Positions 9,873 through 15,907 of a stretch of 64,000 bases of DNA are shown here, one piece after another; positions within the stretch are counted from its first letter, which is position 1; the number at the start of each line of letters is the position of its first letter. The notes under the pieces were generated by a model. That model made no database searches and was not told the origin of the DNA. It saw only the letters and a list, made by a program, of their open reading frames with translations. This stretch comes from Candidatus Obscuribacteraceae bacterium (GTDB lineage Bacteria > Cyanobacteriota > Vampirovibrionia > Obscuribacterales > Obscuribacteraceae), in the NCBI GenBank assembly GCA_044229845.1, contig JBGASG010000013.1, positions 1-64,000 on the forward strand, in the 5' to 3' direction. The position numbers were made by a program, and so were the translations under genes.

Positions 9873-11477
9873 ATGGGTCACCTGGTAGAGAACGTCGAAA
9901 ACCAGCTAGCGCTGCTGAGCACCATCGATCTCGATGAGGTCATGGAGACAGTGGCGCGCATTCTGCTGGAAGCCGGGGAGGCCAAAGCCGTTTCTATCCT
10001 CATGTGGGACGAGGACCTGGAGAGTTTCGGCGAGACCGAAGTCTTCGGACCCAAGAAGAAAGAATTTGCCAAGTTCGTCGAAGCGGTGTCCGAAGCGGAC
10101 AGCGACAACCTGTTCAACGGCAAAGTCAGCGGCGAGCTGGACCTCGATGAGGTTTCGGCAAAACTGCCGTCCGACCTGGAATCGGTCATTTACCACAAGC
10201 TGGAAGACTCCGCGGGGCGCTGCGGGCTTATCTTAATCGCCGGCGTCGACCCGGAAGAAGCCGCAGAACTGAGCGAGGAGATCTCGCGCTATCCGATTTT
10301 GCACGCCTTACGCAACTCCTGGGAGGTGCGCGAACTGCGCCGCGAGAACGAGCGCTTGCGCAGTCTTTACGACGAGATGGAACAACAGAACAGCATGCTC
10401 GAAGAGCAAACCCGCAAGCTGATCCACGACACGATGGCCAAGGAGTCTCTGCGCACACGGCATATGGAACAAGCGAAGCTGCTCTACGAGATCAGCAACG
10501 CGGTGCGCAGTTCGCTGGAGATCATGCAGGTGCTGCAGACTTCGGTCGCCAAGATCGGTGTCCAGTTTTCTCTCAGCCGCTGTTTGATCTTGCGCCCGGT
10601 TGCCGGTGGCGATGATGTTGCCGTCAGCGAATATCATCACCCCTCGGTTGAATCAATCAGCAAACTATTCACCGAGGTCGACGGCAGAGAATTTCTGCAA
10701 GCCGCTCTGGAAAGAACAGCGCCACATGATTTCGGCGACCCGTCCATGGAATGCGATCGCGTCTTCAATAACGCGTTGATCAAGCAAATGGCGATGCTGT
10801 CGGGGCTTCTGGTGCCAATTATCATGCGCGACAGGGCGATCGGAGCCATGCTGCTGCAAGACTGCCAGACGCCGCGCCACTGGTCCATCGACGACACCGC
10901 CTTTTTCGGATCGCTGGCCGACAACCTGGCGGTCGCGATCGAAAATGCCGACTTGCACGAAGAGAAGAAACTACAGGCGGTGACTGATGGATTGACGGGC
11001 GTCTCCAACCGCCGCCACTTCAACGACATGTTCCAGAAAGAATTCGAACGCGCCAAGCGTTATGCAGAGCCGCTTTCCTTGATCATAGTCGACCTCGACT
11101 ACCTGAAGAAAATCAACGACACCTACGGTCACCAGGCAGGCGATGAAGCGATCAGATCGATCGGCAAAGTCATGTCCCAATCCTGCCGTTCGGTCGACCT
11201 GCCGGCGCGCTACGGCGGCGAAGAATTCTGCTTGCTTCTACCTAACACCGACCTGGAGATGGCAGCGGTAATTGCTGAACGCCTGCGCAAGCTAATTAAT
11301 GAAACTCAGATCGAAGGACCGGGCAACATCAGCGCCAGCATAGGTCTGGCCAATTACCCGCTGCATGCCAACGAAACAGACTCACTTTTCATGCGCGCCG
11401 ACGAAGCGCTTTATAAAGCCAAGCAAAGTGGTCGAAACCGGGTATGCATAAGCGATGGCGAGCCATCCGCGCACTAA
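9873..11477 (+). CDS. GAF-domain diguanylate cyclase
   Basis: Coiled coil, GAF (PRHWSIDD), TDGLTG, RxxD I-site (RSVD) and GGEEF. SD GAAAGGG before ATG 9873. Confidence 0.93.
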   Translation: MGHLVENVENQLALLSTIDLDEVMETVARILLEAGEAKAVSILMWDEDLESFGETEVFGPKKKEFAKFVEAVSEADSDNLFNGKVSGELDLDEVSAKLPSDLESVIYHKLEDSAGRCGLILIAGVDPEEAAELSEEISRYPILHALRNSWEVRELRRENERLRSLYDEMEQQNSMLEEQTRKLIHDTMAKESLRTRHMEQAKLLYEISNAVRSSLEIMQVLQTSVAKIGVQFSLSRCLILRPVAGGDDVAVSEYHHPSVESISKLFTEVDGREFLQAALERTAPHDFGDPSMECDRVFNNALIKQMAMLSGLLVPIIMRDRAIGAMLLQDCQTPRHWSIDDTAFFGSLADNLAVAIENADLHEEKKLQAVTDGLTGVSNRRHFNDMFQKEFERAKRYAEPLSLIIVDLDYLKKINDTYGHQAGDEAIRSIGKVMSQSCRSVDLPARYGGEEFCLLLPNTDLEMAAVIAERLRKLINETQIEGPGNISASIGLANYPLHANETDSLFMRADEALYKAKQSGRNRVCISDGEPSAH

Positions 11478-11557
11478 TAGCGTATACATCCTTATCCCTG
11501 GAGTATGGAAACCGGATCTGTGAGTAAATAGAGACTAGGCCGCACAGGAGAAATTTC

Positions 11558-12088
11558 ATGGGACTATTTGACGACGTCGTAAAGAATGTCCAGAGCACGG
11601 TTTCGAAGCTGCAGAACACCTCACAAGAGGTCGTGCAAACCGTCAGTATCAATAGCCGAATCAATTCCCTGGAAGCAAAGAAAACCGCCAGTTTCACCAA
11701 CATTGGCAGGCTCATCTACGACAAATACGCCAAAGGCGATGAAGTCTCGGAAGATCTTTTGAAAGAGAAGGTCAAAGAGATAGATGAAATTCAAAAAGAA
11801 ATTGACGTTCTGAAAGCCGACCTGGCCGGCATGAAAGCCCAACACGACCCGGATGTGCCGCGCTCGGCCAAGGCGGACAGCAAAGCGGGCTATACTCCCA
11901 CTCCGGGATTCGAATGCCCGACGTGTCACGCACCCGCCGCTCGCGATAAGCATTTCTGCGTATACTGCGGCTCGACCTTGGGTGAAGCAGCCGAAAAGGC
12001 TGAGAGCGCAGAGAAGAAAGAAAAGTCTTCCAACGGCAAGTCCGGCCATCATGAAGAAGGCGATGGCGACGGCGACAGCGCAGATTGA
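11558..12088 (+). CDS. Coiled-coil protein with a C-terminal zinc ribbon
   Basis: AGGAG SD, helical N-terminus (MGLFDDVVK...IGRLIYD), CPTC-x10-CVYCG. Confidence 0.88.
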   Translation: MGLFDDVVKNVQSTVSKLQNTSQEVVQTVSINSRINSLEAKKTASFTNIGRLIYDKYAKGDEVSEDLLKEKVKEIDEIQKEIDVLKADLAGMKAQHDPDVPRSAKADSKAGYTPTPGFECPTCHAPAARDKHFCVYCGSTLGEAAEKAESAEKKEKSSNGKSGHHEEGDGDGDSAD

Positions 12089-12762
12089 TCGGCGACGTAC
12101 CACCGGACTTAAGACAACTACTGGATGAGGCGCTGACGCGCGTTCATCAGGACATTACCCGGGTCTGGCTGCGCGCTTCGCTGACATACGAATCGGGCGT
12201 GCAGGACAAAAAAGCCATTTTGGTCGGCGGGTCGTGGTCGCCCTTTTTTCTGGACAAGCGGGCGGAGAATCCCTCCCCCTGGGACATGGTGGGCGCCGGC
12301 GCGTTGATTTACAGCCCGCGCATTTTGCACGTCGATGCCATTGACGAAAGCGACAAATTGGAAGACTGGGTGGCGCCACTGCAGGGTTTCGCCAGAGCCG
12401 CCGATGGGTTGCTCTTGATCGCGGACAGCGTCACAAACTCCGAACTGCTCGCCACGCTCGTCATCAACAATGCACGCGGCACGCTGGCGTGCGCTCTGGT
12501 AAAGCCCGGGAAAGAGCCGCCTCCGTCGCTGTGGAAAGTGAACGGACGCAAATACGACACCACCAACAAGGCTCAGCAAGCCCTGGTGCGACGCACAGCT
12601 ACAGCTATTCTTTTTGAGCCGAAAGGCGAAGCGCAACTGCGCAGCCACCTCACCGATATCGCTGTGGTGGCAGTGGGCGGCAAAGATTCCAGCGATATCA
12701 AAGCACGCCTGGACATTACAGCCAGACTGCTTCTCGACATGGAAGAACGTTTCGAAAGCTGA
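12085..12762 (+). CDS. Stand-alone GroEL intermediate+apical-domain-like protein (candidate natural minichaperone)
   Basis: Ordered GroEL-like blocks: [60 protein letters not shown]. No equatorial GDGTT/TLGP motifs. Confidence 0.78.
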   Translation: [225 protein letters not shown]

Positions 12763-12774
12763 ACCGATTTCTTC

Positions 12775-13722
12775 CTACATGCGGGCGTTTTTGCCGCAAT
12801 CCGGACAGAAGAAAAAGTTCGGGCTGACCTTGGCACCACAATGCGGACATGTGCGCAGGTTGAGGTTTTGTTCTTCGGTCGGATAACGACCAGCCATGAT
12901 TTCTTGATACTGCTTGCTCTCGGACCAGTCTTTGATTTCCTTGGCGCGATAGACCGGCAACGGGTGGCTGAGCCAGAGTTCGAAGAAGAACTTGTAGAAC
13001 TTGTTGAGCATGTCGTGATCGAGTTCTTCGTACTTCGCACCTTGTTTGAGAAACTCAGCATGATCGAGCTGGTTGTAGATAGTCTTAGAGCCTGCAGTCA
13101 TCTTCATGTGCGTCTCGAGGCAGACTTCCACATCTTGAGCGACGATCAGCTCAGCGCGGTCGGCAGTCAGTTCAGACTTGCGAGCCCACTCGAAGAGCGC
13201 CACCAGCACACCCTGGGTGATCAACTGGCTCATGCCGAGCGGAATGTTGCGCAACAGAATTTCGAGCAAGAAATAAACGATGGTGCGGTAAAGCACATGT
13301 CCAGCTTTGATGTGTCCAAGTTCGTGTCCGATTACACCCATCAGTTGCTCTTCAGTCAGCAAGTCGACAAGCTCGGAGTGCAACACGATGAACGGGCGCT
13401 CGACACCGAACGTCCAGGCATTCACCGTCCAGTGGTTGATCAAAAACAGATCCGGTTCGTGCATGTCCAGAATGTCGCAAGCTTCTTTCAATAGCTTGTA
13501 GACCTTCGGGCATTGCTTCGGCGTCACGTTTACGGACATGCCCATCAGTCTGACGCGGAAGATGCGCTCGAAGCCCAGCTCCAACATTTTGGTGAATATC
13601 TTGTCTATCAGAGGAATCTTTTTGACCGCATCGAGCGCCGCTCTGTCCAGTGGATGTTCAAACGCGCTGGACGAAATGCGTGGAAACCTTTTTCTGCTTT
13701 TGACTTCTGAAACTGCGCTCAT
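12775..13722 (-). CDS. M48-family metallopeptidase with a C-terminal zinc ribbon
   Basis: NAWT, HELGH, ELTADR, SHP, CPHC-x10-CPDCG. Confidence 0.92.
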   Translation of the reverse strand: MSAVSEVKSRKRFPRISSSAFEHPLDRAALDAVKKIPLIDKIFTKMLELGFERIFRVRLMGMSVNVTPKQCPKVYKLLKEACDILDMHEPDLFLINHWTVNAWTFGVERPFIVLHSELVDLLTEEQLMGVIGHELGHIKAGHVLYRTIVYFLLEILLRNIPLGMSQLITQGVLVALFEWARKSELTADRAELIVAQDVEVCLETHMKMTAGSKTIYNQLDHAEFLKQGAKYEELDHDMLNKFYKFFFELWLSHPLPVYRAKEIKDWSESKQYQEIMAGRYPTEEQNLNLRTCPHCGAKVSPNFFFCPDCGKNARM

Positions 13723-13909: not shown

Positions 13910-15907
13910 TCAGGACAATGTAATGATTTCGATCCCTCGACCGACGATGACGGCCAGGTTTTCTTTGATGGAAACCGCGGACGCGCCGTTAACGACATTG
14001 AGCGACGCAATCACCTTAGGCGCCCCACCGGAAGAAATGTCCACCAGAGTGGCCTGGTCCTTGCCTTCGCCGGTGTTGCCGACCGTTACCACTTTGTTGC
14101 CGGCCACTGCCAGTGCCGTCCCGTCCTGGGGCAGTTCGATGGAGCCGATTGTGGGCAGATCTGGTTTTTCCACATCGAGCAGCAGCAGAAAGCCGCGCGA
14201 GTTTTGATCGATGGCAGTGATCATCGCGTATTTCTCAGTCAGCACCAGGTCGCGAATGGCCAGGTTAGTGAAGTTGCGAGTCGCGACTTGCTCAACGTTA
14301 TCATCGGCAACTTTCAATAGCGTCAGATCGTTTACGGAAGAAACCAGAAGTTGCCCGCCCAGACACGATGCCCGGCGGAACACCGACGGCAGAGGCATCG
14401 CCTTGCCGGCCTGCAAGTCGTCGCTGGAAAGGTCGATCGAACTGACGGTAGCCTTGTCATTTTTGCTGCTCAAAAGATAGCCGCGCTTTTCTTCTGCGTC
14501 GTAAGCCAGATAACTGCCGGCAATTTTCAACTCGGACGCGACTTCATCCGGTTTGGTCAACGACCGCATGGTCAGACCTTCTCCGGAAAGAATCACGACC
14601 TTGTCACCGACTGCCACCATCGAGCGCACCGGGCTGCCGACATCAGTTGATTCCACGAGAGTCGGGCGTTCCAGTTGCTGCAAGTCGTAGACCTTCAAGT
14701 CGGCACCACCGAGAAGAGCTCGATTTTGCCCGAGCACAACTGACGCCGCCGGCAGCCTGGGGATGGTGTGACTGTACATGTACTCCCACGTGCCTGTCTG
14801 GTTCGTCAGTACCTGCACGCCGCCCCAATCGGAGGCCACATAAGCTTCTTTGACCGTCGCCACGATGCGCGCTTTGGAAGCAGGGCCGCGTTTGCCGGAC
14901 GGCAACAGCACCACATTCGATGCCACCAGCTGCAAGGCTTTGTTGTAGGTTACCGGCAGCACAGCCTGACGTCCCTTGTGGTTGACGAGCAAGAGCAGTT
15001 GCCCCTTTTGAGCCGCACCGTCGAGAATGTCGGTGACGCCCGGCAGGCGCAGCCCCCGCACCACATGCAGTGTCGGCTTGAAACCAACGGCATGAATTTC
15101 GTAGTCTTTTTCCAGATTTTGTCCGCCGACGAGGAAGAAGTCTCTCGTCTTGGCACAGACCTGGTAGGTGCCTTTCAACTTGACGGGCTTGCCCTTGGCG
15201 CGCGGATTGAGCGCCGGCACGATATCGATTTGCGTTTCTTTCGCATCAGCCTGGACTACGATCAAGTTTCTGTCCAACATCTCCAGCTGCGTGATTGGGC
15301 GGTCGAACTGGGCTGAGGCCAGGAGCGTCGGGTCGGCTTTGCGTGAGCGGCTGGCACCGTATACGATGACCTGATTTTCGCCGTTGGCACCGGTTCCAGC
15401 CACCGCCACGATATCGCCGGAGAGAGCCAGTGAAGTGGGCTCGGAGAATCCGTGCAAAGGCATCTGGGCTATTATCGTCGGATCGCTGGACGGCATCAGG
15501 CTGACCACCACCAGCGACCAGACGCCTTCGCCGCCTTTATCCGACCAGGAAAGCGCGTAAGACCGCTGCATGGTGATCGCCATAGCCGGAACACGCTTGC
15601 CGATGCTGGACAGCTCACTGATGACATTGGGAGCGTCGGATTGCTTGAGATCGACAATCACCAGGCGCCCGCCGCTGTCGCCAATCACCGCATAGCCTTT
15701 TTCGCCGACACCTATGTAGTCGGGGACGATCGAAGGCGGCCATTCCTGCCGCGAGATCGAATGAGGTCCGGAGATCGGCTTGCTGGGCTGTTTCTTGCCC
15801 TTAGCGGGCTTCTTTGCAGCGCCGGCTTTGCCGCCCAATGCAAAGGCAGCTTCGGGCGAGATAGCCGCCGCCATTAATCCCAGTAGAAAGCTTCGCCGCG
15901 TAAACAT
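13910..15907 (-). CDS. Tat-exported beta-propeller (LVIVD-repeat-like) protein
   Basis: MFTRRSFLL twin-arginine signal, repeats such as RLVIVDLKQSDAP, LKVYDLQQLERP, LLLLDVEKPDLP. Confidence 0.75.
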   Translation of the reverse strand: MFTRRSFLLGLMAAAISPEAAFALGGKAGAAKKPAKGKKQPSKPISGPHSISRQEWPPSIVPDYIGVGEKGYAVIGDSGGRLVIVDLKQSDAPNVISELSSIGKRVPAMAITMQRSYALSWSDKGGEGVWSLVVVSLMPSSDPTIIAQMPLHGFSEPTSLALSGDIVAVAGTGANGENQVIVYGASRSRKADPTLLASAQFDRPITQLEMLDRNLIVVQADAKETQIDIVPALNPRAKGKPVKLKGTYQVCAKTRDFFLVGGQNLEKDYEIHAVGFKPTLHVVRGLRLPGVTDILDGAAQKGQLLLLVNHKGRQAVLPVTYNKALQLVASNVVLLPSGKRGPASKARIVATVKEAYVASDWGGVQVLTNQTGTWEYMYSHTIPRLPAASVVLGQNRALLGGADLKVYDLQQLERPTLVESTDVGSPVRSMVAVGDKVVILSGEGLTMRSLTKPDEVASELKIAGSYLAYDAEEKRGYLLSSKNDKATVSSIDLSSDDLQAGKAMPLPSVFRRASCLGGQLLVSSVNDLTLLKVADDNVEQVATRNFTNLAIRDLVLTEKYAMITAIDQNSRGFLLLLDVEKPDLPTIGSIELPQDGTALAVAGNKVVTVGNTGEGKDQATLVDISSGGAPKVIASLNVVNGASAVSIKENLAVIVGRGIEIITLS

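Follow-up and report, generated by a model that had tools for sequence, protein, structure and literature searches.

A stand-alone protein made of the intermediate and apical domains of GroEL, encoded in a Candidatus Obscuribacteraceae genome

We examined a 64,000-nucleotide stretch of DNA from a Candidatus Obscuribacteraceae bacterium (assembly GCA_044229845.1, contig JBGASG010000013.1, positions 1 to 64,000 of the forward strand; hereafter the window), in which an open reading frame (ORF) at 12085-12762 on the plus strand encodes a GroEL-derived protein of 225 amino acids (aa). Because its predicted fold matches GroEL 150-409 and no equatorial remnants lie around the ORF, the protein comprises only the intermediate and apical domains. 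The family to which it belongs is homologous to the group I chaperonin GroEL, and the ORF is a selected gene under strong purifying selection. Our favored reading is that the protein would bind hydrophobic stretches of polypeptide without ATP, as a holdase or an adaptor, through the groove between the equivalents of GroEL helices H and I, and we assign this reading a rough probability of 0.55. An earlier note on this DNA had favored a repurposed stand-alone intermediate-plus-apical module over a decaying groEL fragment; the fold, the selection data, the orthologues, an intact groEL elsewhere in the genome, and the lack of flanking remnants all supported that view. The gene and its parts are as follows.

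12085..12762, plus strand: whole gene for the 225-aa stand-alone GroEL-derived protein (intermediate plus apical domains), with a TTG start and a TGA stop (ORF list, sequence, alignment A1, and fold match)
12085..12213, plus strand: first intermediate-domain segment, residues 1-43, a helix and strands, approximately GroEL 150-191, with the family-conserved D8, L9, and W28 (BLASTP, hhalign, structural alignment, and column counts)
12214..12654, plus strand: apical domain, residues 44-190, approximately GroEL 192-374, with the K/L hairpin reduced to about 10 residues and a shorter stretch past the PG motif (crystal-structure alignments and hhalign)
12358..12486, plus strand: helix H-strand-helix I, residues 92-134, counterpart of the substrate- and GroES-binding groove of GroEL (column counts and alignments)
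12655..12759, plus strand: second intermediate-domain segment, residues 191-225, a strand and the long helix M equivalent (hhalign, column counts, and secondary structure of the model)

Sequence and predicted structure of the GroEL-derived protein

The ORF list and the sequence gave an unbroken frame of 225 codons at 12085-12762 (plus strand), in which the TTG at 12085 is the earliest start codon; relatives start at the equivalent residue in alignment A1. This alignment comprises 47 family members. Excluded from it were the nearly identical fragment P0002, the short sequences P0046, P0051, and P0052, and P0050, a 696-aa repeat protein whose membership was judged spurious from its sequence.

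Standard family models did not recognize the protein. Pfam returned no family for the 225-aa ORF at E ≤ 1 and matched 0/47 family members at E ≤ 0.1, while the NCBIfam GroEL models gave weak scores of 15 to 40 bits for all six members tested, far below their cut-offs of 352 to 1041; neither the ORF nor its relatives thus reached the curated cut-off of the GroEL/Cpn60 family (PF00118; NCBIfam TIGR02348). Searches against individual sequences were more telling. In a phmmer search of PDB sequences, 49 of the 50 distinct sequences obtained at E ≤ 10 were GroEL/Cpn60/Hsp60 chains, the remaining one being a copper oxidase (E 0.8), and the top match (E 4.8e-5) placed ORF residues 75-140 on the helix H/I region. 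Likewise, BLASTP aligned residues 11-142 of the ORF with residues 157-277 of the GroEL encoded by the same genome (31% identity, E 1e-7).

With the A1 profile the likeness extended over almost the entire protein. Profile positions 6-188 matched GroEL 152-340 in the PDB with an E value of 1.2e-24, the match reached position 224 on GroEL 404 for some PDB chains, and 60 of 60 among the matches listed were group I chaperonins. In hhalign, family columns 11-227 corresponded to residues 153-400 of the genome's own GroEL (probability 98%, E 1e-13), and overall identity to GroEL was about 22%. The same alignment revealed that about 29 residues of the K/L hairpin are deleted and that the stretch past the PG motif is shorter, both of which the earlier note had described. 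It had also listed six sequence blocks in the order of GroEL ~155-410, all of which aligned in that order, and had read F, F, L, V, I, and N at key apical positions, which proved to be F54, F55, L122, V126, I127, and N128, equivalent to GroEL 203, 204, 259, 263, 264, and 265. Its expectation that a profile match would be restricted to the intermediate and apical domains held for the A1 profile and hhalign, though Pfam itself was blind to the protein.

All of these alignments were confined to GroEL 150-409, such that the equatorial nucleotide-binding site and the ring contacts are absent. The absence of both equatorial segments, noted before, was borne out by tblastn: with the two portions of the equatorial domain, N-terminal and C-terminal, of the genome's own GroEL as queries, nothing was found near the ORF at E ≤ 10.

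Structure prediction led to the same assignment. AlphaFold2, given A1 without templates or GroEL sequences, yielded a model with a mean predicted local distance difference test score (pLDDT) of 92.8 and a predicted template-modeling score of 0.90. All structural results given here were obtained with this A1-based model, the single-sequence prediction (pLDDT 36.6) having been discarded. Foldseek against the PDB ranked GroEL first (E 1.6e-13), and VIA-align superposed model residues 1-225 on GroEL 150-409 with a Z score of 17.1 and a root-mean-square deviation (rmsd) of 3.5 Å over 212 residues (21-22% identity). The structural check suggested beforehand thus gave a confident model with GroEL as the top match, limited to 150-409. 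Crystal structures of isolated apical domains (1SRV, 1JON, 1DK7, 1KID, and 5CDJ) aligned to model residues 43/44-181/192 with Z scores of about 14. Nucleotide-free or closed GroEL chains fitted best (TMq 0.63-0.67, rmsd 3.5-4.5 Å), while GroES-bound chains fitted worse (TMq 0.44-0.49, rmsd 9-12 Å). The predicted domain arrangement therefore resembles that of nucleotide-free GroEL. A prediction of two copies as a homodimer with A1 scored 0.00 versus a mark of 0.42 and bears neither way. The ESM Atlas model of the sequence (pLDDT 0.37) was set aside, with its low-TM STAS-type rows taken as noise.

Column counts in A1 were then compared with GroEL. The helix H-strand-helix I segment (residues 92-134) had a mean top-residue frequency of 0.50 versus 0.31-0.39 in the other segments, and it was also the closest to GroEL, its family consensus agreeing with the GroEL consensus at 15 of 43 residues; the helix M equivalent has 3/29 consensus residues in common with GroEL. 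On alignment to 4ki8_A, V96, L99, L122, V126, I127, and N128 correspond to GroEL L234, L237, L259, V263, V264, and N265, positions at which GroEL contacts substrate and GroES. The residue is hydrophobic in 45/47 members at each of the equivalents of L234, L237, and L259 and in 42/47 at each of those of V263 and V264, and N128 is kept in 45/47. The hinge glycine G192 is mostly retained (G in 30/44, A in 10/44), and the equivalent of G375 is D or E. The equivalent of GroEL D398, the catalytic aspartate of the intermediate domain in the E. coli protein, is R214 in the ORF and is variable in the family (E10, R9, D7, and Q6 of 42).

Nine columns are at least 90% conserved in A1, namely, G48, G49, P53, W95, L109, N128, R169, G198, and G199. 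In the second intermediate segment, G198 and G199 are invariant and D204, Q205, and R208 are family specific, and the family-specific invariants W28, W95, W167, R169, R170, D204, Q205, and R208 have no GroEL counterpart. As a side observation, the genome's own GroEL (L001 1444-3066) reads GFVSAYF in the loop that is GYLSPYF in the aligned PDB GroEL chain; an alanine replaces the conserved proline in the housekeeping GroEL, but the short family retains the proline.

Selection, distribution, and genomic setting

Comparison with the sister genome G001 uncovered 25 differences within the ORF, all of them synonymous (Sd 25, Nd 0, dS 0.167), for which the neutral probability is 7e-16 given 24.8% synonymous sites. 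In a second lineage, two family genes on Acidobacteriota-like metagenome contigs gave a ratio of nonsynonymous to synonymous substitution (dN/dS) of 0.177 over 228 codons, and the 47 aligned relatives, at 21-37% identity, contain no stops. The genome itself carries an intact groES-groEL operon on another contig (C8), for which the earlier note had asked a check, and this operon is the sole match in the genome to Cpn60_TCP1 and to Cpn10.

The family was delimited by phmmer over 1.84 billion cluster representatives, which returned 52 matches at E ≤ 1e-3 (29 at E ≤ 1e-10), nearly all of 200-250 aa and matching end to end; they amount to about 48 diverged clusters of similar length. Same-length orthologues with dN/dS below 1, called for by the earlier note, were accordingly found (Nd 0 versus Sd 25 against the sister genome, and 0.18 in the second lineage), and its alternative of flanking equatorial remnants together with a lack of conserved orthologues was borne out by neither the tblastn nor the family search.

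Within the order, A1 detected the family at E ≤ 1e-28 in 5/107 genomes and 4/38 genera (G000, G001, G014, G493, and G453, the last with 173 aa). Among 400 further genomes of the phylum, every genome's best A1 match was no better than 4.6e-25, and among the matches listed for this sample all 149 of 149 places besides that of G000 fell in GroEL-sized frames of 417-589 aa. A family gene is also present on a public contig titled 'Candidatus Obscuribacterales bacterium'; it matches P0003 at 33%, as does the window protein, and is probably the same gene as that in the window. Contigs of one family subgroup encode a seryl-tRNA synthetase 92% identical to proteins labeled Thermoanaerobaculia, so that the family extends over two phyla or more. 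Two scans with patterns A3 and A4 reach close subfamilies only and have little bearing on the true distribution: A3 found two relatives in metagenome contigs and none in genome contigs, and A4 found only the two genomes already known.

The A3 and A4 patterns matched no relatives among the viral contigs of IMG/VR, and 50,697 phage records held none beyond H/I-region matches to full-length GroEL-sized genes, with 0 records at ≥80% coverage. PHROGs matched 0/5 members, the PADLOC defence families matched 0/6, and fold matches in BFVD were only viral chaperonins of 458-609 aa. One gene met in the phage records, DAC23_261 of Bacteroides phage DAC23 (L063 862-2484), a 540-aa 'hypothetical protein', matches the family in the helix H/I region and is of a size that points to an unannotated GroEL-like chaperonin of full length.

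In a maximum-likelihood tree, 49 family rows were separated from 5 GroEL rows by a long branch (SH-aLRT 100), and the family evolves faster than GroEL, with a median end branch of 0.71 versus 0.16-0.34. With 5 GroEL outgroup sequences and 24/51 inner branches unresolved, the donor lineage is not nameable from this tree. Nor does composition show a sign of foreign origin, since the GC content of the ORF (about 0.56-0.60) lies inside the range of its surroundings (0.51-0.61).

Family genes elsewhere have varied neighbors: a desaturase and an aldehyde dehydrogenase in G014, an isocitrate lyase in G493, and Uma2, porin, PIN, dienelactone hydrolase, and phosphoketolase genes on metagenome contigs. 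Neither a conserved neighbor nor a link to chaperone genes appeared across the six contexts examined. The G014 contig (DATNPX010000056.1, L046) is titled 'Oculatellaceae cyanobacterium', while the genome collection places it in the window genome's family, a probable labeling conflict.

Two further features concern the gene upstream of the ORF.

12085..12088, plus strand: 4-base overlap TTGA, in which the upstream 176-codon gene ends (TGA stop) and the GroEL-derived gene begins (TTG start) (sequence)
11558..12088, plus strand: upstream coiled-coil/zinc-ribbon gene, assigned to the same transcription unit, context rather than a dedicated partner

In the upstream 176-aa protein, a coiled coil at the N terminus is combined with a zinc ribbon at the C terminus and an acidic/lysine-rich tail; its Pfam zinc-ribbon matches fall under the curated cut-offs, with none above them. 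Weak PADLOC matches to LmuB/JetC resemble coiled-coil noise. The gene belongs to the core set of the bacterial family (95/104 genomes), is unlinked to the GroEL-derived gene in G014, and adjoins a GGDEF gene in 12/12 aligned loci of relatives. In a Rosetta-stone check, the N-terminal extensions of the longer members P0010 and P0040 were unlike the zinc-ribbon protein (E 0.14-0.35).

On the other side, 12 bases separate the stop codon of the ORF from that of a convergent gene at 12775-13722 (minus strand) for an M48/HtpX-like zinc metalloprotease with a C-terminal zinc ribbon. This enzyme is of a protein-quality-control type, and its adjacency to the GroEL-derived gene is confined to this genus. 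Beyond it, 13910-15907 (minus strand) encodes a 665-aa protein with only faint beta-propeller/LVIVD-repeat matches, all under cut-offs; one relative or more likewise has it downstream of M48.

Synteny of the GGDEF, zinc-ribbon, and M48 genes is seen again in the 12 relatives' loci, with M48 within reach in 7/12 and the GroEL-derived gene present in 0/12. The slot between the zinc-ribbon and M48 genes contains a 201-aa hydrophobic ORF in G475 (L050 875-1480), a 231-aa ORF that by eye looks like an acetyltransferase in G020 (L057 729-1424), and 30 bases with no gene in G009 (L051 856-886), and it looks like an accessory-gene hot spot. Since its content varies across relatives, the GroEL-derived ORF is an accessory gene and its upstream overlap is not the mark of a dedicated partner. 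Of the coupling to the upstream gene claimed earlier, the physical overlap stands, while its significance does not: with a core gene in 95/104 genomes on one side of a variable slot, the overlap is incidental. The family as a whole is rare, patchy, and accessory.

As for transcription, 17 metatranscriptome runs from five studies contain 39-65% of the sampled words of 11400-12900. In four runs, each from a different study, contigs start at 11480-11551, 7 to 78 bases before the ATG of the upstream gene, cover that gene, cross the junction, and end within the ORF at 12183, 12231, 12283, and 12318. As RNA libraries may contain DNA, contigs across the junction only hint at cotranscription. Contigs in those four runs leave 12319-12663 uncovered, a kind of gap that proves nothing and that may arise where synonymous strain differences in the ORF break assemblies. 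Expression, which the earlier note had made a point on which its proposal could fail, is hence hinted at by RNA-library contigs from four studies that reach into the ORF, while full-length coverage was not obtained in those runs. A terminator-like hairpin with a T-run was seen at 12226-12252 (plus strand), within the ORF codons for the conserved GG-x-x-SP-FF motif; terminator-like sites in the region (2 found versus 2.6 expected) are not above chance.

The claim that neither groES nor CIRCE lies nearby also held. A search allowing up to three mismatches gave 0 CIRCE matches in the window, and the only groES of the genome adjoins groEL on contig C8, so that the GroEL-derived gene stands without a groES operon.

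Proposed function and alternative explanations

We propose that a group I chaperonin ancestor would have lost its whole equatorial domain, which carries the ATPase and forms the ring, together with the apical K/L hairpin. With no equatorial domain there is no ATP site, no ring contact, and no C-terminal tail, and the resulting cytosolic protein would work without ATP and without a cage. Its hydrophobic groove between the helix H and I equivalents would bind extended hydrophobic segments of other proteins, as engineered minichaperones do. The conserved family-specific residues of the intermediate part probably either fasten the two domains to each other or make a second contact surface. In PMC9138447, isolated GroEL apical domains are described as monomeric, with their substrate-binding surface kept and able to aid refolding without ATP, and the apical domain is described as binding both substrate and GroES by the same surface.

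Several observations weigh against a general peptide binder. Two substrate-contact positions of GroEL are not maintained, the equivalent of Y199 being small (A in 30/46) and that of Y203 variable. The conservation of the groove, a property read from sequence, could partly stem from fold packing, and the strongest family-specific invariants (W28, W95, R169, R170, G198-G199, D204, Q205, and R208) may hint at a different activity. A monomeric apical domain is reported to be a weak binder. With neither a heat-shock element nor a link to chaperone genes, a role in protein quality control receives no independent support, and a family this rare and patchy has a dispensable function.

One alternative is that the GroEL-derived fold has been reused as an adaptor or scaffold for one dedicated, unlinked partner, recognized through the family-specific residues, a reading that we regard as possible but doubtful. 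It is consistent with the many top-conserved columns that are unlike GroEL (D8, L9, W28, R79, W95, L160, P161, W167, R169, R170, D204, Q205, and R208), with the low agreement of the helix M equivalent with GroEL, and with the long branch and faster evolution of the family. A precedent for such reuse is the Fab1_TCP domain of PIKFYVE, which PMC2846930 presents as a 224-aa chaperonin apical-like domain within a nonchaperone protein. However, none of the six contexts offers a conserved neighbor as a candidate partner, and the most conserved continuous segment is the H/I groove rather than the new residues. This adaptor reading and that of a general binder are not mutually exclusive.

A further alternative, which we consider improbable, is that the mobile loop of GroES, or that of a phage GroES analogue, is bound in the groove, so that the GroEL cycle is tuned or blocked, the protein being a co-chaperonin binder or decoy. 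GroES and substrate share one apical surface of GroEL, according to PMC9138447, and the equivalents of that surface are conserved in the family. In addition, groES-groEL is present in every genome with the gene, and the scattered, accessory occurrence in variable slots would fit a gene related to conflict. Nevertheless, a single apical domain makes only weak contact with one GroES loop, and it is closed GroEL, not the GroES-bound state, that the model resembles. The viral contigs, as searched with the patterns used, and the phage records, apart from the H/I-region matches to full-length genes, supplied no relatives, and no tested member matched a PADLOC defence family. It is similarly improbable that this motor-less chaperonin head acts in trans on GroEL/GroES or a mimic by binding mobile loops or clients through the H/I groove. 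If true, such a head would hold back, reroute, or shield folding that depends on the chaperonin, for instance under stress or when phages infect, and would represent a chaperonin regulator of a new class, disseminated by horizontal transfer.

Two explanations appear very improbable. The first, a split chaperonin half that, by noncovalent pairing with an equatorial domain from another gene, restores an ATP-driven subunit, would account for the clean domain boundaries at the two hinge crossings, but the Cpn60_TCP1 search of the genome found one full-length groEL only (1 match, 2 candidates scored; genome 88% complete), the D398 equivalent is not conserved, and the K/L hairpin, which lines the folding chamber, is lost. 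The second, a nonfunctional relic in which a groEL fragment or an annotation artifact keeps an open frame by chance, could draw on the failure of Pfam to recognize the ORF and on the shortened copy in the relative G453, but it is contradicted by the selection tests in both lineages, and the full-length relatives with near-invariant columns, the confidently predicted fold, the lack of flanking equatorial remnants, and the RNA-library contigs that extend into the ORF likewise speak against it. The G453 copy itself (L045 1456-1977), with 173 aa, degenerate motifs (GA for GG and SE for SP), and an early stop, is possibly decaying in that one lineage.

Comparison with known chaperonin systems

Chaperonins are the textbook ATP-driven cages, and, to our knowledge, isolated apical domains were previously known only as laboratory constructs or, in eukaryotes, inside a lipid kinase. 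Our search of the full-text literature, with subscription journals outside its coverage, found no natural bacterial stand-alone form described. The proteins reported here are motor-less GroEL head-and-hinge proteins that constitute a rare family without a Pfam, NCBIfam, or PHROG model, and those family records that bear a source name are labeled hypothetical. The family shows that the client-binding half of GroEL can exist on its own. It provides a natural test case for the apical groove without ATP, ring, or lid, gives minichaperone engineering a set of about 48 divergent natural sequences, and exposes an annotation gap.

Relative to GroEL/Cpn60 (PF00118), the family is homologous, has the same fold over 150-409, and retains the H/I groove residues, N265, and mostly G192. 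It differs in having no equatorial domain, ATP site, ring contacts, C-terminal tail, or K/L hairpin, in the variable D398 equivalent and the D or E at the G375 equivalent, and in showing no groES linkage.

The closest natural analogue that we found in print is the Fab1_TCP domain of PIKFYVE/Fab1. It is likewise an apical-like module, comparable in length at 224 aa, that lacks the ATPase and lies outside a chaperonin ring, and it most closely resembles CCT3's apical domain, according to PMC2846930. In a comparison made by description only, it differs from the present family in deriving from group II (CCT3-like) chaperonins and in being embedded in a large multidomain kinase.

The engineered minichaperones (GroEL 191-345 or 191-376; 1KID, 1JON, 1DK7, 1FY9, 1LA1, and 3VZ6-8) likewise present an apical domain without the ATPase, and their structures superpose on model residues ~36-192 with Z scores of 12.7-14.3. 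They are laboratory truncations of a normal GroEL, whereas the family is a natural, selected gene. Unlike the minichaperones, it possesses both intermediate-domain segments and invariant residues of its own, and it has dispensed with the K/L hairpin.

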